A model generated the notes under the pieces. That model was given only the letters and a program-made list of their open reading frames with translations, was not told where the DNA came from and searched no databases. The translations under genes were made by a program, and so were the position numbers. From Candidatus Latescibacterota bacterium (GTDB lineage: Bacteria > Latescibacterota > UBA2968 > UBA8231), in assembly GCA_965242865.1 (NCBI GenBank), contig CBDETK010000013.1, positions 2,272,001-2,336,000 on the forward strand: a DNA stretch of 64,000 nucleotides. The letters are read 5' to 3'. Positions 44,890-56,497 of the stretch are shown here, piece after piece (position 1 is the first letter of the stretch; every line of letters begins with the position of its first letter).

Positions 44890-45173
44890 TACGTTTGCCA
44901 AGCGGGCACGTGAGCCGTCAGCAAGGCTTTGAAGAGCTTGCCGTGGTTGGGTACGCGCAGGTGCAGCAACTCGTGGACAATGACGAAGTCTTGGAAGCCT
45001 AAGTCCTGATCGGCGAGGTCCGCGGCGAGGGTGACGACGCCAGCGGTCGAACACGAGCCCCACTTGCGCGTCATGCACTGCACACGCACCTGCCGGGGCT
45101 GGACGTTCAGCCGCCGCGCCCAAGATGCGACGCGCTCGCGCATTACTTGGCGTCGTTGGTCAGGCGTCCGCAT
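44832..45173 (-). CDS. YgjP/DUF45 (M48-like) metal-dependent hydrolase, short form
   Basis: [21 protein letters not shown]; follows hsdR as is common. Confidence 0.8.
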
Positions 45174-48096
45174 CGGTGCTTACTCCCAAAATGCCGAGGA
45201 TGCGCTCTACGACGCGGGTCCGCTCGTCCTTTTGCAGGCGCAGTAGCGGAATATAGAGGGCCGTGCGCAGCCGCCGTTGCTCATCGGCGTTGACGGGCGC
45301 GTTGGGGAAGCGGTCGAGCAGCGTTTCCGCTCGTCGTGCCAACTCCAAGGTGTCGATGCCAGCGATGTCCAGCTTGGCGTCGTCCTTGAGTGCCCAATGG
45401 ACGGCGAATGCTCGCGGCGCTAGCCCGCTAGCTCGCTCGGCCCGGATGGCTGCATCCTTTTCCGCGGCGAGGTTCGCTAACCAGTCCATGGCTTCCTGCG
45501 CGGTTGTCGTGCGATTTTCCAGTTCCTTCAGGATGCTTTCGGCGCGTTGCTTTAAGGGCCGCAGCACGGCCTCTTTGTCTGGGTTGCTCTCGATTTCCTG
45601 CCGGAAGCCGCGCACGAGATTGAACACTTTGGCCGCGGCCAAGCCCGGCTCGCTTTGCAGCGTTTTAAGGGTGGATACGTCAAACGGCACGGTCTTGGTC
45701 AGCCGGCCGAGCCCTTCTTGAGTCGCATTCTCTTGTACCAGAAGCCGCGTTTTATTAGCCAAGTCTGCCGTGTAGTTGGTGCCGCGGGTATAGGCGTTGC
45801 GGACGGCCGCGTAGAGTCGCGCCAGCCGCCTGAAGGTGTCGATGCGGTCGCGCAATGCTGGCGAAGGCGACAAGATCTCCCACAGGGCCTCGATCTCCTT
45901 GTAGGCTGCAAAGAACGCCTTGCGCGACTCGAGTGCTAGAAAACGCCCATAGACGAGCTGCTCCAGTTGTTCATCCGCGCCACCGCTTTCCCCATCGGCG
46001 AGGTAAGTAGCTGCCGCTCGCCCGAGCTTGTCAAGCAAATCGCTCAGCAGGAGATCGAGGTCCTCCAAGGCACCGCTGACATCGGATGCGTCGAACTGCA
46101 ACGCCTTTTTTAATTCGCGCAGGACGCCGACAAAATCGACGACGAGGCCGATCCGTTTTTGGCGGCCGCAAGGGCGGTTCACGCGCGCGATGGCTTGGAG
46201 GAGCACGTGGTCGCGCATGGGCTTGTCGAGATACAAGCAGTAGAGGAGCGGCGCGTCGTAGCCTGTGAGCAGTTTGTCGGTGACGATGAGGATCTGGGGA
46301 TTTGCATCCGCTTTCTTGAACATCAGGCGGGTATCGGCCTCGCGGTCTGGCGAAAGCTGGTACTGCGCAACGAGCGGGCGGTTGACGCTGTCGGCGGCGT
46401 TCTCGGTGTAGACCGGCGTAGTCCATTCGGGAGGCAGCAACTCGTCGAGTGCCTGCTTGTACTGGGCACAGGCTTCGCGGTTCACGCCGACGAGGAACGC
46501 CTTGTAATGGAGCGGTGCCACGTTGTCGCGGAAATGCTGGGCGACGAACGCGGCAACTTTTTTGATGCGGTCGGCGGCGGTGAGGAAGGTGCGCAGGCCG
46601 ATGGCTCGATCGAGGACCTTGTTGAGCTCATCCACATCGGCGACTCCCTCTGTCTCGGCGAGGGCGAAGAACTCTTGGTCGAGCCGCTCTGCCGGCACCA
46701 TCATCTCGCTGGGGGCCATAGTGTGGCAGATCGGCAGCGTTGTTTCGTCCGCAATCGACTCGGCGATGGAGTACTTGTCGAGGTAGCCCAACTCGTCACC
46801 GGCCCCGAATATCTTGAAGGTGCCTTCTCCGTACGCAGTTTGGTCAATGGGGGTGCCGGTGAAGCCGATGATCGTTGCATTGGGCACGGCCGCCATTAGA
46901 TAGGTGCCCAATTCCTTGGCGACCGAGCGGTGCGCCTCGTCGATGAACACGTACACATTGTTGCGCGTATTGGCCTGCTGCTCTAGCCCCTCAAACTTGT
47001 GGATCATGGACAAGATCAGGCCGCGCTTGTCGGTTTTGAGCATATCCCGCAACTCGGCCTTGGAGTTGGCACGCCATACCGCGATGTCCTGCTGCTGCAT
47101 CTCCCCGAGCAGCCGCTCGACCCAGCCCTTGAGTTGCCCTTCGAGTTCCGTCCGGTCCACGACCACTAGGACCGTCGGCGTCTGGAATTCATCCTTGCGT
47201 TCCAAAATCAGCCGTGCGGCCGTGAGCAGAGTGAAGGTCTTGCCGGAGCCTTGGGTGTGCCATATAAGTCCGCGCTGTTTTGCCGGCTCGGCACAGCGCT
47301 CGACGATGCGGTCCACAGCCCGGCGTTGGTGCTGGCGCAGCACGGACTTTTGCGTCTCGCCGTCCTCGACGTAAAACAGAATCCAGTCGCGCAGGGTGCG
47401 CAGGAAATCGGTCGGCTCAAAGAACGATTGGACGGCGAAGCGGTAGCTTTCCTGTGGCTGTTCCTTCCACCGCGCCATGGACCGGCGCACTACGTTCCAA
47501 GTGACGCCATACCAATAGTCGAGGAGGTGTGTAACGTTGAAGAGCTGCGCCGTTCCCATCAGTTCCGGCGTCTCCTGCTCGTAGCGTCGCAACTGGGTGA
47601 CGCCCCGCTCAATGGCGTCGGCGTCCTTTGGGTTCTTATGCTCGACAATGGCGACCGGCACGCCGTTGACCACAAACATCACGTCCGCCCGATTGCCCTT
47701 GCGCGCCGGTGGCTTGAGCTTCCATTCCCAAGTGACGTGGAAGGTGTTGTTGCTCGGTGCATCAAAATCGACGAGTTGGACTGGTCTGGATCGATTTTCG
47801 GCTTCGTCGTACCACGGCCGTTCCCCGCGCAGCCAAGCGAGCATTTCGCGGTTGCCCTCAATCGTCGGCGCGATCGCTTCGAGTCGTTCGACGACGGCGC
47901 GGATGGAATCGTCTGTCATCCAAGGGTTGAACCGCCCGAGTGCGCCTTCAAGCTCATCGCGGAATAGCAGCCCGGCCTCGCCGCCGCGTTTGTGGAGGGC
48001 GTCTTGTGGTGCCAGTGGCTTCCAGCCGATCTCGGCCGCGTGGCGGACCATGGGGAACTGGACGGTGGTGGCTTCGGTGATGTTGAAGGGGGTCAC
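45160..48096 (-). CDS. hsdR: Type I restriction endonuclease subunit R
   Basis: RAD..NGVP..VEHK nuclease motif, [36 protein letters not shown]; GTG 48096 after GGAG (alternative TTG 48117). Confidence 0.92.
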
Positions 48097-48168
48097 AAAC
48101 GGCTCTCCAGTTGCCAAGCTCCTCGATTAGCTACATTTTTCGCTAACTTCATTCTCAAGGAATTGGCG

Positions 48169-48402
48169 ATGGTAACAGTGAATGTCCATGAGGCGAAGAC
48201 CAACCTGTCGCGCTTGCTTGCCAAAGTTGAGGCCGGGGAGGAGGTCGTCATTGTCCGCAGCGGTACGCCGGTGGCCCAGCTCGTGCGCGTCCAAAAGCAG
48301 GGCAAGCGGCAATTCGGCTCCATGAAGGGCCAGATAAAACTCGACGACCGCTTCTTTGACCCGCTGCCAGAAGAGGAATTGGCCGCTTGGGAGGGCAATT
48401 GA
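48169..48402 (+). CDS. Phd/YefM family antitoxin
   Basis: VNVHEAKTNLSRLL..VEAGEEVVI..G.PVAQL; AAGGA RBS. Confidence 0.9.
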   Translation: MVTVNVHEAKTNLSRLLAKVEAGEEVVIVRSGTPVAQLVRVQKQGKRQFGSMKGQIKLDDRFFDPLPEEELAAWEGN

Positions 48403-48562
48403 GCGTTGCGCCTTAGAGCACGCGGTGCGCGCTGGATCCTTGCCGGGTCCGCACCGAGACCCTTTCGACCGAATGCTCATCGCCCAAGCATTGTCCGGCA
48501 ATTTGGTCCTCGTTTCCATTGAATCGCTCTTCGATAGGTATGGTGTTCGCCGCCTTTGGTGA
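48399..48562 (+). pseudogene. VapC (PIN) toxin remnant, N-terminal part deleted
   Basis: Only HRDPFDRMLIAQA...FDRYGVRRLW remains; no LLDT motif. Confidence 0.8.
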
Positions 48563-48678: not shown

Positions 48679-49899
48679 TCATAGCTTTTCAAATATGACG
48701 ATACTCTCTCGGGCTGCTGTGCGCCCGTACTTTCCCATCTGCTGTGCACTATTTCCACGCCAACGCACTGCTCGTATTTCCTTGCAGGTGAGACCAGCCT
48801 GTTCCCCGATTTCTGCCGTAAATTCGTCAACAAGAATAGCCGTGCCATCGTATTGTGTATTCCCTACGACGAACCCAGCCTTCGCACCTTTGCGACAAAC
48901 ACGGGCAACTTCGCAAAGACACAGATACATATCTAGAAAATATCCGTCCAACATGCGCTGCATACGCTTGTCACTTAGACTGCGGATACTACTATCCAAA
49001 GCCTCCGGGGGCTTATATTCTTTAGCCAACGGTCGACTCGGACGAGCTTCCGGGTGGGAATGGAACGTCTGATATCTAAGTGCTCGATTTGCTTCCCAGT
49101 TATGGAAGGCGAACATCAATTCAACGCCAAAGATGCGTGTATAGTCGTGACGATTCGGATACGGTGGAGAAGTAATCACGGCTGAGTACACTGCATCAGG
49201 TGTCGGCATGGCACGCGCATCCGCTATACGAGCTTCCCAATATCTATCGCTATCGCCTTCGGACTCTGTGACACAAACGTCCGACAACATCATTTCAATC
49301 TGCTTCTGAAAAAAAATCGTAACACTATCGGCACTAGCACCTTGGTTCAACCACCTCAACCAACCTCCATTTGCGACTGCATAGCTAAAACGCGGTATGA
49401 TAGAAAGCAGTGCTAATCGAAAGAAGTCCCGTTCCGAAGACGAACAATCAATGTTCTCAATGCCCACCGCGACTGCATTTAGTGCCTCAAGCCGTCCCTC
49501 CGGGAGTGCCTTGTGAACCAGTTCTGGATATACACGGTCCATGGGCGGCGTGCTATCGTGAATCAATGTACGTTCGAGTATTTGCCATGCTGCTTCCAAC
49601 CGTTGTCTGGAGAAAGTAGCGGTCTTGGTATTGGATGCGAGAACAGCAAGAGGGGAGAGATCAAAGCCGTTACCCGGAACACCCATTTCTTTAGCGGCCA
49701 ATAGCGTTGTACCTGCACCTACGAAGGGGTCAAGGATCTTGTCTTGGTCGTTAAGGTCCCATTCATCTATCAATGCGTGGACGAGATCGTCAGCAAAGCT
49801 GTGAGGAAATAGATACCAACGGTGGACTGCCTTTTCTCTAACACCCCTCGGTGTTACCCAGTGTTTCCATGCACTCCATTCAGTAACTTGCCACTTCAT
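48679..49899 (-). CDS. Amino-DNA methyltransferase (SPPY; probably N4-cytosine)
   Basis: HRWY, ILDPFVGAGTT, ADAR, ITSPPYPNRHDY, FVVGN, RESIVIF. Confidence 0.88.
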   Translation of the reverse strand: MKWQVTEWSAWKHWVTPRGVREKAVHRWYLFPHSFADDLVHALIDEWDLNDQDKILDPFVGAGTTLLAAKEMGVPGNGFDLSPLAVLASNTKTATFSRQRLEAAWQILERTLIHDSTPPMDRVYPELVHKALPEGRLEALNAVAVGIENIDCSSSERDFFRLALLSIIPRFSYAVANGGWLRWLNQGASADSVTIFFQKQIEMMLSDVCVTESEGDSDRYWEARIADARAMPTPDAVYSAVITSPPYPNRHDYTRIFGVELMFAFHNWEANRALRYQTFHSHPEARPSRPLAKEYKPPEALDSSIRSLSDKRMQRMLDGYFLDMYLCLCEVARVCRKGAKAGFVVGNTQYDGTAILVDEFTAEIGEQAGLTCKEIRAVRWRGNSAQQMGKYGRTAARESIVIFEKL

Positions 49900-49914
49900 G
49901 ATGAACTATCAGCT

Positions 49915-50679
49915 CTAGGACACATGCAATTGCGGCTTAATCGAACCTCTGTCAGTGACCGTGTGAGCACTCGGCAACTCAACATCATCGGCATTTCCAA
50001 GTATAATCCGTCCGACGATCTCTCGGAGTTGCTGCTTAATTCCTTCATAGTGAGGTTCACCACGGATATGGTTTATGGTATTCTTAAAGTATTCGTCCGA
50101 AGTCAAAATGTAATCCGCCTGAACTACTAATGCATTCGCACAAATAATACTATCCATGGCATCCATATAAACCAGCCCGTTGATATCCTTTGCCAACTCT
50201 AGTACATCGCTCGCTTGGTCGCTTCGGCTCGTCTTGACAGCGATACCAAGCTTTCCTAACACGGAGGTTAGCCCGTCAATTCTATCCTTGATAGCCGCCA
50301 AGTCGGTGGGGCCGACTCGATCACGAATCTCTTTTTCCCTAAAGCGCGACCAAGTTCTATCTGACACTCCTTCTTTAGCCGCACTCAGAATTGCTTTTCC
50401 TTTTGCTCTTCCAGTGAGTAATTCAAGCTCTGAAATGGGTGCATATTGGACTTGTACATCCTGCTTCAAAAGGAAATCGATAGTTTCTAGACCCTTTTTA
50501 AGACTTTTTTGTAGATTGGCTTCAGAAAGGTTGTTTACCTTCGCTATCGCTGCCTCCTTTGTTTTGAGGTCTTGAGGATATAGATCATCCTTCTTGGCGT
50601 ATTCTAGGTAAATTTCGATGTAATGTAGTGTATTTGTGTCTAGAAACGCTACTTTCCGAAAGAATTGCGTCTTTTTCAT
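49915..50679 (-). CDS. PIN-domain-like protein
   Basis: AFLDTN, SELE, DAMDSIICANA, ILTSD: the four acidic PIN positions. Confidence 0.65.
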   Translation of the reverse strand: MKKTQFFRKVAFLDTNTLHYIEIYLEYAKKDDLYPQDLKTKEAAIAKVNNLSEANLQKSLKKGLETIDFLLKQDVQVQYAPISELELLTGRAKGKAILSAAKEGVSDRTWSRFREKEIRDRVGPTDLAAIKDRIDGLTSVLGKLGIAVKTSRSDQASDVLELAKDINGLVYMDAMDSIICANALVVQADYILTSDEYFKNTINHIRGEPHYEGIKQQLREIVGRIILGNADDVELPSAHTVTDRGSIKPQLHVS

Positions 50680-51860
50680 AGCTTTGTATTCTCACTGATA
50701 GTCGAGTTGGGATAAAGTTCCTCTTCGATTTTGTGAAGATAATTCTCGGTAAATGGTAGCTGCACGTCAGAATCCGCTTTTGCAATCGCTCGGAAACATG
50801 TCTTTACGAGCCGTCTAGGATTCGAGTACGTGTTGGGACGGAAGACAATATCATCAGGAAACGGGAAAAGGTCTCCCATTGATTCGTCCTGTTCTCCTGA
50901 CCTAGCAGCAGCTATCCGTGACCTCATTAAGGCTAACGCTTCCTCACTCGCTAGAGACTCGATATCTAATATTTGGTCAGAAATGCGCTCAATTAACGAG
51001 GGCTCAAGCTCCTTGGTCGTCTCATAAGCATCGGGGGTCATCGACAAGACGATCCAGAAGTCAACCTGCTCGCTTTGAGCGAGGTTAATCAAACGTTTCA
51101 GTGTCGCCAAGTAATCGTGTGCCGCCCGTTTAGTAAGCCGCTTCTGAAGACCTATTTCCTCGAATTCGTCTATAAGAAACGCAATGGCTTTAGCACTCGT
51201 CCCTTGTGAGATCGTTTTCAGTATTGCGCGAAAGTAAGGTGCTTCCTCGCCTTCCGGGACCATGCTGCCCGTCTGTCGGGGTATGAAATCCCGATATTCA
51301 AAATATGGTTTCTTTACGATCTCAGTAACGATTCTGGTGAGACAGTTTGCGATTTGTTCGTCGGTCGTGACATCCGCATTTATAATGGCCTCTTGGAGGT
51401 GGCTTGTCATATCCTGTTGTCGCCTCTGACGGAACGAACGAAACAAGTACTCCTCATAACCTTCTTGAAAAAGGTTTCCCTGATATGAATTAGACACATG
51501 TGAGCTAGCAAGCTCCCAGATGAATTTGGCAAAATCCTTACGGCCGACAGTGCGCAACAATGTATTAGCAAGATCATAAAATTGCACTCCTGGGTTATCA
51601 AAATAGAACGACTTGATTTGGCGGTTTGGAAAGATCTCGCTATGAAGCCATTGCAGGAGGCAGGTCTTTCCGGTACCGTACTCGCCGACGATGACGATGG
51701 CCTTTACTCCTTGGCCCATCTGATGGACATCGAGAAGTCCCATCGTATCTTCGCCTAGTTTATTCGGAGGAGCCAGCGTACCCAAGAGAGGTGCGCCTGT
51801 CGCAGAAGGCTCGAAAGGATTGGAATCAAGCCGGAGTTTTTGCAGGATGTTGGGTATCAT
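50676..51860 (-). CDS. P-loop AAA+ ATPase (BrxD/DUF2791- or Orc1/Cdc6-like)
   Basis: NPF N-terminus, Walker A GEYGTGKT, Walker B FLIDEFEE, LIER, NPRRLV. Confidence 0.8.
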   Translation of the reverse strand: MIPNILQKLRLDSNPFEPSATGAPLLGTLAPPNKLGEDTMGLLDVHQMGQGVKAIVIVGEYGTGKTCLLQWLHSEIFPNRQIKSFYFDNPGVQFYDLANTLLRTVGRKDFAKFIWELASSHVSNSYQGNLFQEGYEEYLFRSFRQRRQQDMTSHLQEAIINADVTTDEQIANCLTRIVTEIVKKPYFEYRDFIPRQTGSMVPEGEEAPYFRAILKTISQGTSAKAIAFLIDEFEEIGLQKRLTKRAAHDYLATLKRLINLAQSEQVDFWIVLSMTPDAYETTKELEPSLIERISDQILDIESLASEEALALMRSRIAAARSGEQDESMGDLFPFPDDIVFRPNTYSNPRRLVKTCFRAIAKADSDVQLPFTENYLHKIEEELYPNSTISENTKL

Positions 51861-52905
51861 AATCTGTGAACTCCATAGGTTTGAGAGTTATGTCTCTGTG
51901 TATGCGAATATGGGAAATATAGGGACCATTTGAAGCCTTATAATATCTTTTCAGCTCTAGATTTTCCCTTAGCGGAGATGTCGTCGTCAGCGTCGCGAGG
52001 GCACGAGAAGTGGGAATCAGGAAGATGTGATGGGGCCACTCGTGAATTAGCCAGTCGATCGCACTATAGAGCACACGGATCGGTTGTCTTTGTTCTTCGC
52101 AGCAACATGCGATGAGATCAAAAACAGAGAATGACGTCCATTCACCGGGCGTACGTAGTGAAAGAATGAAGCGTATAGTCTGAAGTACAGCGGTATCGAT
52201 TCCTTTCTCGGATAAGTTAGTCTGCAACACGGGAAACATGATCGTACTACCGCCAGATCGTTGACAGTATTCATCAATGAGCCCTAACTCATCACGCGCC
52301 CAGTAGCGTACACCATATAAAATCGCAGCCACGCTTGCGTGGGACGTAAGCCACGCTGTACGTCCCGTTATGCTATTTTGAAAAATGACCTCTCTCGTGT
52401 GAGAGGAACGGGGTCGGAACCACTTAACGGGAACACCGTTTTGCCGGAAACTGGAAACTGAATCGAAACTTGCGTCCGAGGACATAAAAAGATCAAAAAA
52501 AAGTGATCTGCATTGTTCGTTTTTCAAAACTAGTGCTGCAAAAGGGGCTTTCGCGGCATCACATAGCACCTGATCTCCGTTGGCTGGGATCGGCTGACGT
52601 AGCAGTTTGCAGACAATAGGATCATCATAGTTGACACGCAATATCCGTCCATCTCTTTGGAGTACGCCTAAGTGAATCAAGGTATTCCGATAGTGGTAAA
52701 GAGTGGTAGGTGCAGGAGGTGAACTACGCCGATTAATCGGGATGTTATTCTCCTGAACCAACTTATTGATCTCACTAGCCATTAGCCCGTTCGGAAAGTC
52801 TGCTACGGCTTTCAAGATACGATGTAGTCCAGCAAACGAGATGGTATGCATCCAGTATTCGCTCTGTCTCACGGGATATGGATGTTTATTGACCATTGTT
52901 TTCAT
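51826..52905 (-). CDS. Hypothetical protein, probable tandem winged-helix DNA-binding protein
   Basis: wHTH-like segments TTLYHYRNTLIHLGVL and YWARDELGLIDE; overlaps hsdS stop and ATPase start. Confidence 0.6.
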   Translation of the reverse strand: MKTMVNKHPYPVRQSEYWMHTISFAGLHRILKAVADFPNGLMASEINKLVQENNIPINRRSSPPAPTTLYHYRNTLIHLGVLQRDGRILRVNYDDPIVCKLLRQPIPANGDQVLCDAAKAPFAALVLKNEQCRSLFFDLFMSSDASFDSVSSFRQNGVPVKWFRPRSSHTREVIFQNSITGRTAWLTSHASVAAILYGVRYWARDELGLIDEYCQRSGGSTIMFPVLQTNLSEKGIDTAVLQTIRFILSLRTPGEWTSFSVFDLIACCCEEQRQPIRVLYSAIDWLIHEWPHHIFLIPTSRALATLTTTSPLRENLELKRYYKASNGPYISHIRIHRDITLKPMEFTDYDTQHPAKTPA

Positions 52906-54175
52906 TTAGCTCTCGCTTTAGAGACGAATCGTAAACCAACGATAGGTCGAGAACATCAACCCGCATCTCCCACGTCATCAGCTTGTACAGCAGCGTCTTG
53001 AACAAATCGTCGAGCACCGCTCGTTTTCTTCGGTGTAAGTCAATTTTGCGGTCAATAGCGGCGAGAATGGCGACGATTTCGCATTGTTCATTCAAGGACG
53101 GCACCGGAACTAACTGTTCCTTGACAATCCGATCCGTCACTGCCGGGTAGCTAGCGCCGGTCTCAATCATAGCGAGTTGTTGAACAAACTGCTCCCGTTG
53201 GACGACATAGCGGATGAAGTCTTCAACGGCCCTCTTAGGCTCCCGACGCAGGACACAGAACGCTGTAGAACAGACTTGATTATTGAGTTGTTCGGGAACG
53301 ACAGCAGTACGCAACAAAGTTGGCCGGACCGTAGCGAAAATCACATCACCCTTCAAGATGCGTTTCCGGGCTCGTCCGGGTGCTTTTCTGAGTTTGAAAC
53401 GGGACGTTGACTCGATCTGTAAGGACTCTCGGGATACCGAAGAGACATCTACATACTCAATTACTCTCTCGCCTTCACGCCGAAGGTCAACTGTTTCTGT
53501 TTTTTTGCAGAGCGTTCCGAGCGGTCTCAAATTCCAACTCTCCGGCACTGAGCCAATCTCGGTTTCCCTCTGCGCTTCGCCCCTGAGTCCACGACTGAAG
53601 AGCGTCTGCATCGCGGCGCGTTTCAAATCCCGCGCAAGTTCGACGCTCTGAGCATGGGTCTTGATCGCTTTCCGAATCCGCGAAAGGGCGGCGACTATCG
53701 CTAGCTGCTCGTCGATCGTTGGCTGCGGGACCTCAAGCCCTGCCAATCGACTACGCGACAGGTTTGGAATCGTGGTCTTGTTGCCCGCGCCTTCGAATAT
53801 GCCAAGCTGTGTAAAGGCGGATTGCAGGAAGTACACGTAAAAACGCGGCTCGACCTCCTCGACAATGGGCCGCAGCCGATGTAAGTGATTCTGAAACGAC
53901 ATGGTTTCGACTGCGCCGTTCCAGATTGCGGCCCGCCCGATCTCGCCGCCCTCGCACACAAGCAGGTCGCCCCGGCACAACAGCTTGGCTCGTAGCTCGC
54001 GGTCTGGAATCGCCATCTCATCTACAGACGACAAGTCAATTTCATCCCAGAGGACATTCGATGTCCGAAGGAATGGAGTCTTGTCAGGACCGTTGCGAGC
54101 GGCGGCGGACATGGTTTTTCCCGCGCCAATTTCGAATAGCTCCCCGAGAGGACGCCATGTCCACGCTCCATTCAT
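52886..54175 (-). CDS. hsdS: Type I restriction-modification specificity subunit
   Basis: Two TRDs with WTWRPLGE/WNLRPLG, EQLAIV/EQCEIV, ETEIGSVPESW, LLYKLMT. Confidence 0.92.
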   Translation of the reverse strand: MNGAWTWRPLGELFEIGAGKTMSAAARNGPDKTPFLRTSNVLWDEIDLSSVDEMAIPDRELRAKLLCRGDLLVCEGGEIGRAAIWNGAVETMSFQNHLHRLRPIVEEVEPRFYVYFLQSAFTQLGIFEGAGNKTTIPNLSRSRLAGLEVPQPTIDEQLAIVAALSRIRKAIKTHAQSVELARDLKRAAMQTLFSRGLRGEAQRETEIGSVPESWNLRPLGTLCKKTETVDLRREGERVIEYVDVSSVSRESLQIESTSRFKLRKAPGRARKRILKGDVIFATVRPTLLRTAVVPEQLNNQVCSTAFCVLRREPKRAVEDFIRYVVQREQFVQQLAMIETGASYPAVTDRIVKEQLVPVPSLNEQCEIVAILAAIDRKIDLHRRKRAVLDDLFKTLLYKLMTWEMRVDVLDLSLVYDSSLKRELNENNGQ

Positions 54176-54552
54176 TGCAGGCGCACCAACCCCTTGAGCC
54201 GCACGGCTGGCAACCTCTTCAACCGCTGATTCAGTGGGTCCACTTCTATACCGACGGATTCCAACGCCGTCACGCCCAGCAATGGCTCGGCGTCGGCCTC
54301 GCCGAATAGGATCGTCCCGCCAACGATCTCGCCCATAAACTCAATGTCAGCAGTGGTCACGTCCAGAACAAGGTCGCTCCCATCGGCCAGTTGGTATATC
54401 CTGCGGCCCTTCGGCTCCAGGCCGATGGCCTCTAGGTAAGGCCGGGGCACCAGGGAATCGGTGGCCCCTGTATCAACCAGAAACAGACCCTCCCAAAACC
54501 GGCCCGGCTGTGCGGGGTTGGTAATCCTAGCCGTTACATGCGTCGCTCCCAT
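54172..54552 (-). CDS. Clan AA (retropepsin-like) aspartic protease
   Basis: LVDTGATDS, LADGS, PLLGVTALES; GGAGG RBS. Confidence 0.85.
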   Translation of the reverse strand: MGATHVTARITNPAQPGRFWEGLFLVDTGATDSLVPRPYLEAIGLEPKGRRIYQLADGSDLVLDVTTADIEFMGEIVGGTILFGEADAEPLLGVTALESVGIEVDPLNQRLKRLPAVRLKGLVRLQ

Positions 54553-54587: not shown

Positions 54588-56408
54588 CTATTGCAATCGT
54601 GCCAACATATCTGATAGGTGTGCATCCACCTCTCGGGCCTCTTCATCGAGGCACTGCATCTCGGTAATGATCTCCGAGATCGGCCGTTGAACTACCTCGT
54701 CAGCCTGCCCTACCCACCGGCTCGGACTCAAGTTGTAGTCCGCCTGCTCCGCCTGCTCTCGCGTAATCACCGCAATCTCGCCCTCCACCGGCTCACCCTT
54801 CACAAATGCCGTTGCAATCAGCCGAATGTCCTCTTGTGGAATGAAGTTCTTGGGCCGTCCCTTGCGAACTCGCCGACTGGCGTTGAGCAGCACGATCTTG
54901 CCCTGCCGGGCCTCTGGCTTGCGCTTCGACAACACCACGACCACGCCAGCGGCACTGGTGTTGTAGAACAGGTTGTCGGGCAACAGGATCACGCCGTCGA
55001 TCAAGTCGCGGTCCACGAACCATTTGCGGATGTTGCGTTCCCGGTCCTCGTGTTTGGCGCCTGCGCCGCGCGTCACCGCGCCGGTGTCGAGCACGACCGC
55101 GGCCCGCCCGCGCTCGTTCAGGCAGGCGAGCGTGTACTGAAGCCAAGCCCAATCGCCCTTGCCGGTGGTGACGCCGCCTTGGGGGCGGAAGCGATCAAAG
55201 GGGTCGTTGGCGAAGAGCGCCGGGCTGAATGGCTGATTCCACATGGGATTGGCGACCACGATGTCGTGGGTGGAAATCTGGCCAGTCGCGGTCTTGAACT
55301 TGGGATTGATCATAGTGTCGCCGCGCTCAATTGCCATCTCCATGTCGTGGATGATCCCGTTCATGCAGGCGACGGCGTAGCTCTCGGCTTGCAGTTCTTG
55401 GCCGTAGAGCTTGAGCGGTACGCGGCTGGTGGGGTCGAGCTCGCGGGCGACGAGTTGGAGCTTGACGAGCAAACCTGCCGAGCCGCAGGCGTAGTCGTGG
55501 CAATCCTCGCCGGGCCTCGGGCGCATGAGGTGCGCCATGAGGAAGCCGACTTCAGTGGGCGTGAAGAACTCGCCGGCACTTTGGCCCGAGCCTTCGGCGA
55601 ACTTGCGCAGCAGATACTCGTAGGCGCGGCCGAGGAAGTCGGGCTGCACATCGGCGAGGCCGAGCCGGTAGCGCGGGTCGGAAAAAGTCTCGATGACTTG
55701 GGTGAGCTTGGCCGGATTGATGTCGCGCTCGCCATTGCGCTCGGAGGCAAAATCGACAAAATCGATGACCCCCGAAAGCGAGGGATTCTGCCGCACGACC
55801 CCCCGCACGGCCCGTGTCAAATGCTCGCCGACATCTCGCGGCCGCATGCTGAGCGACCACTCGTAACCTTCGCGACCGCTGATGACGCCCCAACGAGCTT
55901 CCGGCGGCAGGTAGAATCGCAGCAGGGCGTGGTCGCTCTCGGCGATTTCCAGCGCAGTCGCCCGATCCCCGAACTCCTCGGCCAAGCGTTCAATCTCGTC
56001 GTCGAACACATCGGATAATCGCTTGAGGAATAGAAGCGGCAGCAGGTAGTCCTTGAATTTTGCCGCATCCTGCTCGCCGCGAATGGAGCAGGCCGCGTCC
56101 CACAGCATCTGTTCCATGGGCTTGGTCGAAGGCACGGCCGCACGGCCTTTGCCTGTCCGTCGCCGCGTCGCCCGCACGGCGGCTTCGGTTGCAGCCAACT
56201 CCATTGTGTCGATGCCCGATTCGGTAGCGAGTGCAGCGATGGCTTCTTGCGCGGCCTTCTGTGGCTTGATTGCGCCGCCTTCCCAGCGGTTGATGCTAGC
56301 GAAAGAGACGCCAAGCCGCTCGGCAAGCTGCTCTTGGGTGAGGTCGAGGCGGACGCGGATGGCGCGTAATGCAGCCGGAATATCGGATAATTCTGCTATA
56401 TTTGACAT
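54588..56408 (-). CDS. hsdM: Type I RM methyltransferase subunit with N-terminal XRE HTH fusion
   Basis: [21 protein letters not shown]; [10 protein letters not shown]; GEFFTP; DYACGSAG; ANPMW; LFYNT; YNLSPSRWV. Confidence 0.92.
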
Positions 56409-56444
56409 AGATGTCAATATAACAGAATACCGATTGCACGTCAA
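56402..56444 (-). promoter_or_regulatory. Leaderless-type promoter with palindromic operator over the hsdM start codon
   Basis: Minus strand TTGACG-17-TATATT, 7 nt before ATG; palindrome TTGACAT-ag-ATGTCAA at 56402-56417. Confidence 0.6.
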
Positions 56445-56462
56445 TAGTGCTGCATTGTTTTT

Positions 56463-56497
56463 GTAGTATATTCGGATGTACATTCCGAATATACTAC
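56463..56497. repeat. Perfect 14-bp inverted repeat
   Basis: gtagtatattcgga-tgtacat-tccgaatatactac. Confidence 0.85.

Follow-up and report, generated by a model that had tools for sequence, protein, structure and literature searches.

In MANTIS, an ORC/Cdc6 AAA+ ATPase and a cofactor have been reported to load an alpha-class methylase and to trigger a nuclease (bioRxiv 10.64898/2026.09.23.753747), and a survey of BREX describes BrxD as a stand-alone ORC/Cdc6 ATPase and BR as a combination of a DUF499 protein, a methylase and a helicase (PMC12839542). It has also been reported that the DNA-binding domain of FokI, SspB and DndG share a triple winged helix-turn-helix (wHTH) module, and that SspB partners the Cdc6/Orc-clade ATPase SspC (PMC10853773). 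Embedding in defence operons has been used as a predictor of new defences (10.1101/2024.01.29.577857), TgvAB being an example of a defence found in this manner (PMC11411939). Here we describe the analysis of a stretch of 64,000 nucleotides (nt) from a Candidatus Latescibacterota bacterium (contig CBDETK010000013.1, positions 2,272,001 to 2,336,000), referred to as the window, in which four co-oriented genes, numbered 1 to 4 in their order of transcription, are found between hsdS and hsdR of a type I restriction-modification (RM) operon. An earlier note, made from the letters of the window, had proposed these genes as a candidate defence module consisting of a wHTH-like protein, a BrxD-like ATPase, a PIN-like protein and a DNA methylase. 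On balance we lean towards a closely related view, namely that the cassette is a putative undescribed minimal anti-phage system based on methylation, RM-like and related in logic to BREX, in which a PIN effector would be guided by a wHTH protein and an AAA+ ATPase.

The four genes are a mobile, self-contained module. A scan of one genome per species, with an alignment of gene 1 as seed, gave 47 loci, which by their record titles belong to Nitrospirota, Latescibacterota, Acidobacteriota, Binatia, Thermodesulfobacteriota, Rhodothermaceae, Gammaproteobacteria, Longimicrobiales, Spirochaetia, Planctomycetota and Chloroflexota. All four genes were intact in 31 of these loci, which by title come from about ten phyla, in the order 1-2-3-4 and with each open reading frame (ORF) covering at least 89% of the window protein; as gene content and gene order are thus repeated in 31 of 47 independent loci, the arrangement is not due to chance. 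The remaining loci comprised two in which one gene was split by a transposase gene (of the Mutator family in gene 3 of L013 and of ISL3 in gene 2 of L035), four interrupted by a contig end (L004, L024, L044, L047), nine that were decayed (L008, L015, L025, L030, L033, L036, L040, L041, L043) and one with genes 1-3 and no methylase (L042). When metagenomes were scanned with gene 3 as seed, four loci were obtained, two of them duplicates of L002 and L027 and two of them new and short, with genes 2-3-4 or genes 3-4 up to the contig ends. The four proteins diverge in parallel, their pairwise identities being correlated (Spearman 0.81-0.90, for 496 pairs from 32 cassettes, the pairs not being independent), and the ATGA overlap between genes 2 and 3 is repeated across many loci. 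Clustering of the 1045 neighbour ORFs of the 31 complete loci revealed no fifth gene common to all, the recurrent neighbours being lineage-specific hsd and HmaC/Septu genes only. Cassette GC (guanine plus cytosine) content was under that of the flanks in 31 of 33 loci and tracks that of the host (r = 0.83), a pattern that repeated transfer with later amelioration would be expected to give. The co-occurrence scan thus bears out the notion of a self-contained module that the earlier note had put forward, the module occurring mostly away from hsd genes (42 of 47 loci lack this type I operon).

Loss of the cassette genes was lopsided. The methylase was retained though gene 2 or gene 3 was broken in L013, L035 and L030 (in the latter by deletions), and where the methylase was truncated or gone, in L008, L015, L025, L033 and L036, genes 2 and 3 were gone too and gene 1 was often intact. 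Such remnants would be expected if the cassette were an RM-like unit whose gene 2/3 part is harmful, and the frequent persistence of an intact gene 1 after methylase loss suggests that gene 1 alone is harmless. Two rearranged loci can be mentioned in this context. In L028 a 3.6-kb insertion (L028:11010-14670) with ORFs of 550 and 206 amino acids (aa), neither with a Pfam family, separates genes 1 and 2, and the flanking cassette genes look intact. In the decayed locus L040 (L040:10001-14187), an inversion covers the segment with the 3' part of gene 2 and with gene 3, and both gene 1 and gene 4 carry frameshifts.

Gene 4 can be assigned as an alpha-class N6-adenine/N4-cytosine DNA methyltransferase, and is probably the self-marking enzyme of the cassette. 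It carries the motifs DPFVGAGTT (residues 57-65) and TSPPY (residues 243-247), of which D57-P-F-x-G-x-G and S244-P-P do not vary among the 32 cassettes compared, and motif I (residues 57-63) precedes motif IV (residues 244-247) with about 180 residues between them, i.e. the alpha arrangement, where the target recognition domain (TRD) is central. Its match to the Pfam family PF01555 reached 33.6 bits (cut-off 26.7), and it also matched the PADLOC model MTase_II PDLC03224 (1.8e-60) and PHROG 18146, a DNA methyltransferase (3.6e-35), in line with what had been read from its motifs alone. No HmaB or DUF1156 model was matched in PADLOC, and comparison with the sequences of solved structures gave weak motif I matches. 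Distant relatives of gene 4 on plasmids (23-28% identity) belong to classic type II RM pairs: the relative on plasmid pBspH1, which judging from the plasmid name we take to be M.BspHI, adjoins a convergent unnamed gene and a small helix-turn-helix (HTH) gene, and another one adjoins an annotated type II endonuclease.

The product of gene 3 is probably a PIN-fold nuclease and the effector of the cassette. The PIN-like character proposed for it, on the basis of its acidic positions, is upheld by the predicted structure (predicted local distance difference test, pLDDT, 91), which consists of a PIN domain with long helical insertions. In a VIA-wide fold search independent of Foldseek the top 17 rows were all PIN/VapC chains (Z 11.1-9.2), each aligned along its entire length, with 130 of 130 residues in the case of 2fe1_A. 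The sequence contains DTN (residues 14-16), E86, D176 and TSD (residues 193-195), and all 32 cassettes compared have D14, E86, D176 and D195. Sub-threshold Pfam matches to PIN were obtained with 11 of 34 family members (the best one, to PF01850, with 23.1 bits and a cut-off of 23.6), and sub-threshold matches to HhH-GPD in 11 of 34 (at best 22.5 bits, cut-off 26.2), a lead that would point to possible DNA binding by the helical insert. Against the sequences of solved structures the gene 3 profile yielded chance-level rows only (e.g. BsoBI, E 0.041), PADLOC v2.0.0 yielded no match, HEC-03B included, and no small gene of the VapB antitoxin type was found in the cassette. Gene 3 is the fastest-evolving of the four, with a mean pairwise identity of 42% versus 55-65% for the other three proteins. 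The effect is most visible in closely related cassettes: between L038 and L039 the ATPase is 93% identical, the methylase 91% and gene 1 85%, the PIN protein 53%, and between the window and L010 the three partners are 85, 83 and 84% identical and the PIN protein 49%. This divergence out of step with the partners suggests replacement of the effector gene, or else pressure from inhibitors and fast diversification.

Gene 2 can be classed as an ORC/Cdc6-type AAA+ ATPase, related to BrxC/BrxD, AAA_22 and ExeA at the superfamily level only. Its Walker A and B motifs are GEYGTGKT (residues 59-66) and IDEFEE (residues 230-235), and all 32 cassettes compared share K65 of Walker A, D231 and E232 of Walker B and the sensor and arginine residues, with T275, R292, R315 and R349. 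The earlier note had called this ATPase BrxD-like, which holds for the ORC/Cdc6 and BrxC_BrxD superfamily; orthology with BrxD was ruled out, since the match to Pfam BrxC_BrxD PF10923 (6e-4, P-loop only) stays at 19.3 bits with a cut-off of 22.2, and that to the NCBIfam BrxD equivalog NF033438 at 16.6 bits (E 0.0031) with a cut-off of 350. Other matches were to the Sll1717 family of NCBIfam (1.2e-10, under cut-off) and, in PADLOC, to mad8 (2e-5, 22 bits), with P-loop-only matches to DpdH, BrxD and SspC. The nearest clusters in the protein-language-model Atlas are BrxC_BrxD/AAA_22 (0.98), many relatives of gene 2 carry Pfam BrxC_BrxD, and among the sequences of solved structures only small GTPases were matched, through the P-loop. 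Neither DUF499 (PF04465) in Pfam nor HmaC/DUF499 in PADLOC was matched, the latter tool giving 1e-95 to 1e-99 for true HmaC neighbours of the cassette. Prediction of a complex between the products of genes 2 and 3 gave a score of 0.08, versus a mark of 0.32, which speaks neither for nor against such a complex.

Gene 1 probably encodes the target-recognition or sensor subunit, a view that rests mainly on its modelled structure. Pfam, PADLOC v2.0.0, NCBIfam and PHROGs gave no match, and Pfam was likewise blank for 28 family members searched singly. The AlphaFold model (pLDDT 81) has a wHTH at residues 20-117, consistent with the wHTH-like nature suggested previously, and an overall multi-wHTH look of the FokI/SspB type: its sole multi-domain structural match is the recognition domain of FokI (2fok_A, Z 9.3, root-mean-square deviation 3.3, 168 residues aligned over model residues 15-228), and the first Foldseek match is SspB (6juf_A, E 0.028, template modelling score 0.30). 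The Atlas also pointed to DpdG (score 0.84), as an unconfirmed lead. Among 28 family members there was no Pfam match to DUF4007 (PF13182) at E<=1, and the gene 1 profile found nothing among the sequences of solved structures. No fold match in any search covers residues 230-340, although the C-terminal third was not searched on its own; in this region H332, H336 and C269 are invariant and H293 nearly so. No PD-(D/E)XK, HNH, GIY-YIG or phospholipase D (PLD) signature was detected in Pfam, and no nuclease chain appeared among the fold matches. The family is compact, with 206 representatives at E<=1e-3 among 1.84 billion, nearly all of 320-360 aa, and a search of 72,556 plasmids and of 50,697 phage records revealed none of its relatives.

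In several cassettes genes 1 and 2 form a single ORF, of 739 aa in L010 and L077, 731 aa in L042 and 712 aa in P0477, and the ATPase part of these fusions is 85%, 51% and 36% identical, respectively, to gene 2 of the window. Because the fusion has taken place three times, at very different degrees of divergence, the DNA reader and the ATPase appear to act as one unit, and we regard this as the strongest evidence for such an arrangement.

The cassette resides in places where defence genes accumulate. In five of the 47 loci (L001, L002, L007, L010, L018) it lies between orthologous hsdS and hsdR genes, hsdR being 75-88% identical, and since these five loci belong, by record title, to three phyla the composite operon also moves as a unit. 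Fifteen of 30 other genomes of the genus of the window have an orthologous hsdR (85-90% identity), and one of 30 has gene 1. We examined ten of these hsdR operons, of which the one in G014 is L010 again. In eight of the ten, 2.1-9.9 kb of DNA lacking the cassette separate hsdM/hsdS from hsdR downstream, and in G019 neither hsdM nor hsdS was present within 13 kb of hsdR. A PADLOC scan of 37 of the 54 gap ORFs of at least 80 aa (the 17 omitted being mostly of 101 aa or less or at the far end of L068) identified a 2038-aa Avs1b-like protein in G010 (3e-45), an OLD/AriA-like ATPase with AbiU in G001 (5e-50), PDC-S09 in G011 (6e-23), a short pAgo together with SIR2 and AbiU in G023 (pAgo_II 3e-127, SIR2 1e-121), AriAB-like and TIR-like genes in G009, TIR-like genes in G007, and weaker matches only in G012 and G013. 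The variety of defence genes carried by the sister operons makes the hsdS-hsdR slot a hotspot for defence cargo, so that what the earlier note had given as established for such gaps could be observed directly in the sister genomes.

A second host of the cassette is Hma. A cluster of neighbour genes in seven cassette loci corresponds to the DUF499 ATPase HmaC, confirmed in six of them, by Pfam in L017, L020, L021 and L037 and by PADLOC in L021, L031 and L045 (1e-95 to 1e-99); in L029 a single ORF was tried, with no match. In the Hma loci the Septu genes PtuA/PtuB directly adjoin the cassette, with HEC-01B or IetA/IetS nearby, and in L045 the cassette is placed between HmaB and HmaC.

Some other genes share these locations. 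The gaps of the sister genomes (L069-L076, from G001, G007, G009-G013 and G023) also hold DUF3800 genes, as well as several ORFs of 200-530 aa with no PADLOC match that could be further unknown defence genes. Among the composite operons of other phyla (L001, L002, L007 and L018), that of L018 has an extra HNH endonuclease gene flanking the cassette and that of L007 a Fic/DOC gene, and several ORFs of 180-363 aa without a Pfam family are present; this additional cargo lies in the intervals from hsdS to gene 1 and from gene 4 to hsdR. As for DUF4007 (SspB-like) genes, these were found in 45 of 168 genomes of the phylum of the window and in 13 of 30 of its genus, and none in the genome of the window itself; Ssp-type systems and the cassette may be alternatives in these bacteria.

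Putting these data together, the system could work as follows. The gene 4 methylase would mark a short motif in the host DNA as self, and the products of genes 1 and 2 would constitute one ATP-driven unit for DNA recognition or scanning, like SspB-SspC and MtsA/MtsB, which may also load the methylase. On unmarked DNA, this unit would license the PIN nuclease encoded by gene 3 to cut nucleic acid. Protection by methylation, the reading of the methylase target by gene 1, the control of the PIN protein by the ATPase and its choice between DNA and RNA as substrate are steps that we infer. The most specific version of the scheme, in which an ORC/Cdc6 ATPase with a FokI/SspB-like reader scans for the unmethylated motif and the PIN nuclease then cuts the DNA of the invader, which would define a new minimal class of methylation-based immunity, is put forward tentatively, as a possibility that for now is doubtful.

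Several points weigh against a self-marking immune system as outlined above. All 47 loci found with gene 1 are metagenome-assembled records, and the loci that show the decay pattern are few and related to one another. In L042 (L042:10001-12895) the gene 1-2 fusion and gene 3 look intact and there is no methylase in the locus, GUN4-like, EngA and CbiQ genes coming next; in the remainder of that genome no relative of gene 4 exceeds 29% identity. Since L042 keeps genes 1-3 in this way, the methylase may not be strictly required as an antidote. With respect to gene 1, SspB is not within the top 50 of the second fold search, kinship with SspB at the sequence level was rejected (hhalign against 14 DUF4007 proteins, probability 0.2%), and conservation spans the entire length of the protein (mean column identity 57%), unlike in the fast-changing specificity subunits of RM systems. 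Finally, VapC-type PIN domains are best known as RNases and to our knowledge there is no restriction enzyme with a PIN fold, so the fold of gene 3 would speak for an abortive-infection effector rather than for DNA restriction.

A cassette of the abortive-infection or toxin type, in which a phage cue is sensed by wHTH protein and ATPase and the infected cell is then shut down by the PIN protein as an RNase, with the methylase as an accessory for epigenetic control or against another nuclease and not as a self mark, is the alternative suggested by this last point. It would agree with VapC-type RNase toxins being the closest folds to gene 3, with the genes 1-3 of L042 and their missing linked methylase, and with the rapid evolution of gene 3, as expected of an effector under antagonism, and ATPase and PIN pairs such as HEC-03 are anti-phage (10.1101/2024.01.29.577857). 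However, the methylase is intact in 31 of the 32 loci with intact genes 1-3 and co-diverges with them, its loss is accompanied by that of genes 2 and 3 in five loci, and gene 1 looks like a DNA reader, all of which makes us regard this explanation as unlikely. A further alternative is a conventional type II-like pair, with gene 1 as an endonuclease composed of a FokI-like recognition part and an unrecognised catalytic C-terminal domain, and genes 2 and 3 as accessories. Such an arrangement would account for the FokI recognition domain as the sole multi-domain match of gene 1, for the pairing of gene 4 relatives with type II enzymes, and for the conserved histidines and cysteine in the C-terminal region that has no fold match; yet the nuclease signatures and nuclease chains sought in gene 1 were not found by Pfam or among the fold matches, an intact gene 1 survives the loss of the methylase in L008, L025 and L033, which is unexpected for an active endonuclease, and the three fusions to the ATPase suit a recognition subunit better. 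We therefore see a gene 1 endonuclease as improbable.

Two other explanations can be considered. RM-like logic fits post-segregational killing as well as immunity, and a selfish addiction, epigenetic or DNA-maintenance module of mobile islands would match the low GC content, the patchy presence (gene 1 in one of 30 genomes of the genus) and the frequent insertions and deletions, including insertion sequences. A non-immune role of this kind nevertheless appears quite improbable given that the cassette is found repeatedly inside bona fide defence operons and islands, and that the plasmid and phage records contained no gene 1. It could also be imagined that the cassette guards the type I RM system around it and fires when this is inhibited, as it is nested in such an operon here and in five of the 47 loci, with gene 1 abutting hsdS, and as sensing of anti-restriction by embedded systems is known from PARIS (PMC12839542). 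This functional tie had formed part of the earlier proposal, in the shape of sensing of RM inhibition, and is not supported: 42 of the 47 loci lack this operon, the sister operons hold unrelated cargo in the same slot, and the cassette is present inside Hma systems too, its own methylase making it self-sufficient. We hold a guard function to be very unlikely, and remain inclined towards the minimal methylation-based system described above.

With regard to the locus in the window (Table 1), the arrangement of four co-oriented, AT-richer genes between hsdS and hsdR was confirmed in its coordinates, overlaps, motifs and GC content, the latter being 0.471 in the cassette, while the hsd genes have 0.598 and the remaining window 0.620. 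hsdS and gene 1 overlap by 20 nt, genes 1 and 2 by 35 nt and genes 2 and 3 by 4 nt (ATGA), and a spacer of 15 nt separates gene 3 from gene 4. The start of gene 1 is ambiguous, as its relatives align only from around residues 12-19 and some begin at the invariant M19, so that its true start and the overlap with hsdS are uncertain. A promoter and terminator scan found 12 promoter-like sites (6.6 expected) and terminators at chance level, with no usable signal among them. By their domain content, the hsdM, hsdS and hsdR genes around the cassette are a real, standard type I RM system.

Table 1. Positions of the cassette genes and of the neighbouring features, counted from the first nucleotide of the window.
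Feature	Position	Strand	Length	Basis of assignment
hsdM	54588-56483	-		N6_Mtase 7.1e-72, HsdM_N 3.7e-24 (Pfam)
Clan-AA (retropepsin-like) aspartic protease gene	54172-54552	-	126 aa	TIGR03698 1.5e-21
hsdS, upstream border of the cargo slot	52886-54175	-		Methylase_S 2.3e-25 (Pfam); Specificity_I 1.4e-132 (PADLOC)
Gene 1, predicted multi-winged-helix protein	51826-52905	-	359 aa	AlphaFold model, fold matches
Gene 2, predicted ORC/Cdc6-type AAA+ ATPase	50676-51860	-	394 aa	AAA_22 2.5e-10 (Pfam)
Gene 3, PIN-fold putative nuclease	49915-50679	-	254 aa	Predicted structure, conserved acidic residues
Gene 4, predicted DNA methyltransferase	48679-49899	-	406 aa	N6_N4_Mtase 4.8e-8 (Pfam)
Phd/YefM antitoxin gene and following 68-aa ORF, between gene 4 and hsdR	48166-48562	+	78 aa (antitoxin)	2.5e-10
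hsdR, downstream border of the cargo slot	45160-48117	-		SWI2_SNF2 4.7e-55, HSDR_N 3.2e-26, ResIII 1.1e-25; REase_I 5.5e-90 (PADLOC)

Three features of the operon other than the cassette can be added. The aspartic protease gene, situated between hsdM and hsdS, is retained at 79-84% identity in the orthologous operons of L001, L002, L010, L018, L069, L071, L073 and L076. HsdM has an N-terminal HTH of the Xre type (residues 38-85; HTH_3 1.6e-8, HTH_31 2.1e-8) preceding HsdM_N. Antisense to the operon, the Phd/YefM antitoxin gene is followed by a 68-aa ORF that matches only positions 74-117 of the 120 of a PIN profile, below threshold (E 0.0046), and the region resembles what is left of a Phd-VapC toxin-antitoxin pair whose toxin has been truncated.

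The cassette has several implications for the study of defence systems. The methylation-based defences that go beyond classical RM, namely BREX, DISARM, MADS and MANTIS, are large and hard to dissect, and a version with four genes in 4.2 kb would be a tractable model, from which it could be learned in what way ORC/Cdc6-type ATPases link attack to self-marking. If the reading in which the PIN protein cuts DNA were true, the cassette would be the smallest system in the style of BREX or MANTIS, with no helicase and no PglZ, and restriction of DNA by a PIN protein would represent a new nuclease fold for restriction enzymes and possibly a new specificity tool. Genes 1 and 3 are without a family in Pfam, NCBIfam, PHROGs and PADLOC. 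The locus is at the same time a clean example of 'guilt by embedding', with eight different cargos in the slot of one orthologous type I operon within one genus, and the same cassette is cargo in two unrelated hosts, type I RM and Hma.

No description of the four-gene set was found in the literature searched, and large supplementary gene tables outside that search could list it unnamed. Compared on the basis of sequence, the cassette fits none of the named families tested. As the earlier note had stated, it contains no PglZ, helicase, large BrxC or recognisable restriction endonuclease domain according to Pfam, PADLOC, NCBIfam and PHROGs, and its genes 1 and 3 match no model of PADLOC v2.0.0. 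With BREX type 2 it shares, in gene 2, a stand-alone ORC/Cdc6 AAA+ ATPase of a size similar to BrxD and in a methylation-based setting (PMC12839542), whereas the large BrxC/PglY (~1200 aa), PglX, PglW and BrxHI of BREX types 1-6 are, like PglZ, missing from the cassette. Only a weak match of gene 2 to mad8 connects it to MADS (mad1-mad8), the matches to mad2 and mad5 being those of the ordinary HsdM and HsdS, for which type I models give much higher scores. From VapBC it differs in the 254 aa and long helical inserts of gene 3, in the coupling of this gene to an ATPase gene and in the lack of a VapB-type neighbour. HEC-03, a tested anti-phage system embedded in Hma, is similar in having an ATPase and a VapC-like PIN protein within a larger defence operon (10.1101/2024.01.29.577857), but its ATPase is of the ABC type and that of the cassette of the ORC/Cdc6 type, the cassette has a methylase and a wHTH protein in addition, and there was no PADLOC match to HEC-03. 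PrrC and TgvAB resemble it as cargo between hsd genes (PMC11411939; 10.1101/2024.01.29.577857), although the proteins are unrelated and the cassette is mostly found outside type I operons.

Type II RM systems such as the pBspH1 pair have a methylase of the same family and are likewise compact and mobile, with the methylase as presumed antidote; in the cassette, three genes take the place of the single endonuclease gene, encoding a putative reader of DNA together with an AAA+ ATPase and a PIN nuclease, and no recognisable restriction endonuclease (PD-(D/E)XK, HNH, GIY-YIG, PLD or half-pipe) was revealed by Pfam, PADLOC, NCBIfam or the fold searches with gene 1, taken as a whole, and gene 3. MANTIS (Gao_RL / Hma / BR type 2; MtsA-MtsB-MtsC-MtsD) also has four genes and marks self by methylation (bioRxiv 10.64898/2026.09.23.753747), and the alpha-class methylase with a central TRD is common to MANTIS, Hma, BR and the cassette. 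In contrast to MANTIS, the cassette ATPase has 394 aa and no DUF499, there is a PIN-fold effector instead of a superfamily 2 (Swi2/Snf2-type) helicase or a PLD nuclease, and the methylase, of 406 aa, has SPPY and not DPPY. No Hma model of PADLOC matches any of the four proteins, and the cassette is distinct from Hma because it adjoins a real Hma system in six loci. Finally, as in Ssp, what may be a multi-wHTH reader of the FokI/DndG type and a Cdc6/Orc-clade AAA+ ATPase are encoded upstream of a DNA-modifying enzyme (PMC10853773); unlike SspABCD, the cassette lacks SspA and SspD and any sequence relation to DUF4007, and it has a methylase as its modifier and a PIN nuclease in addition. In their logic, MANTIS/Gao_RL and the SspB-SspC pair would be the systems nearest to this cassette.

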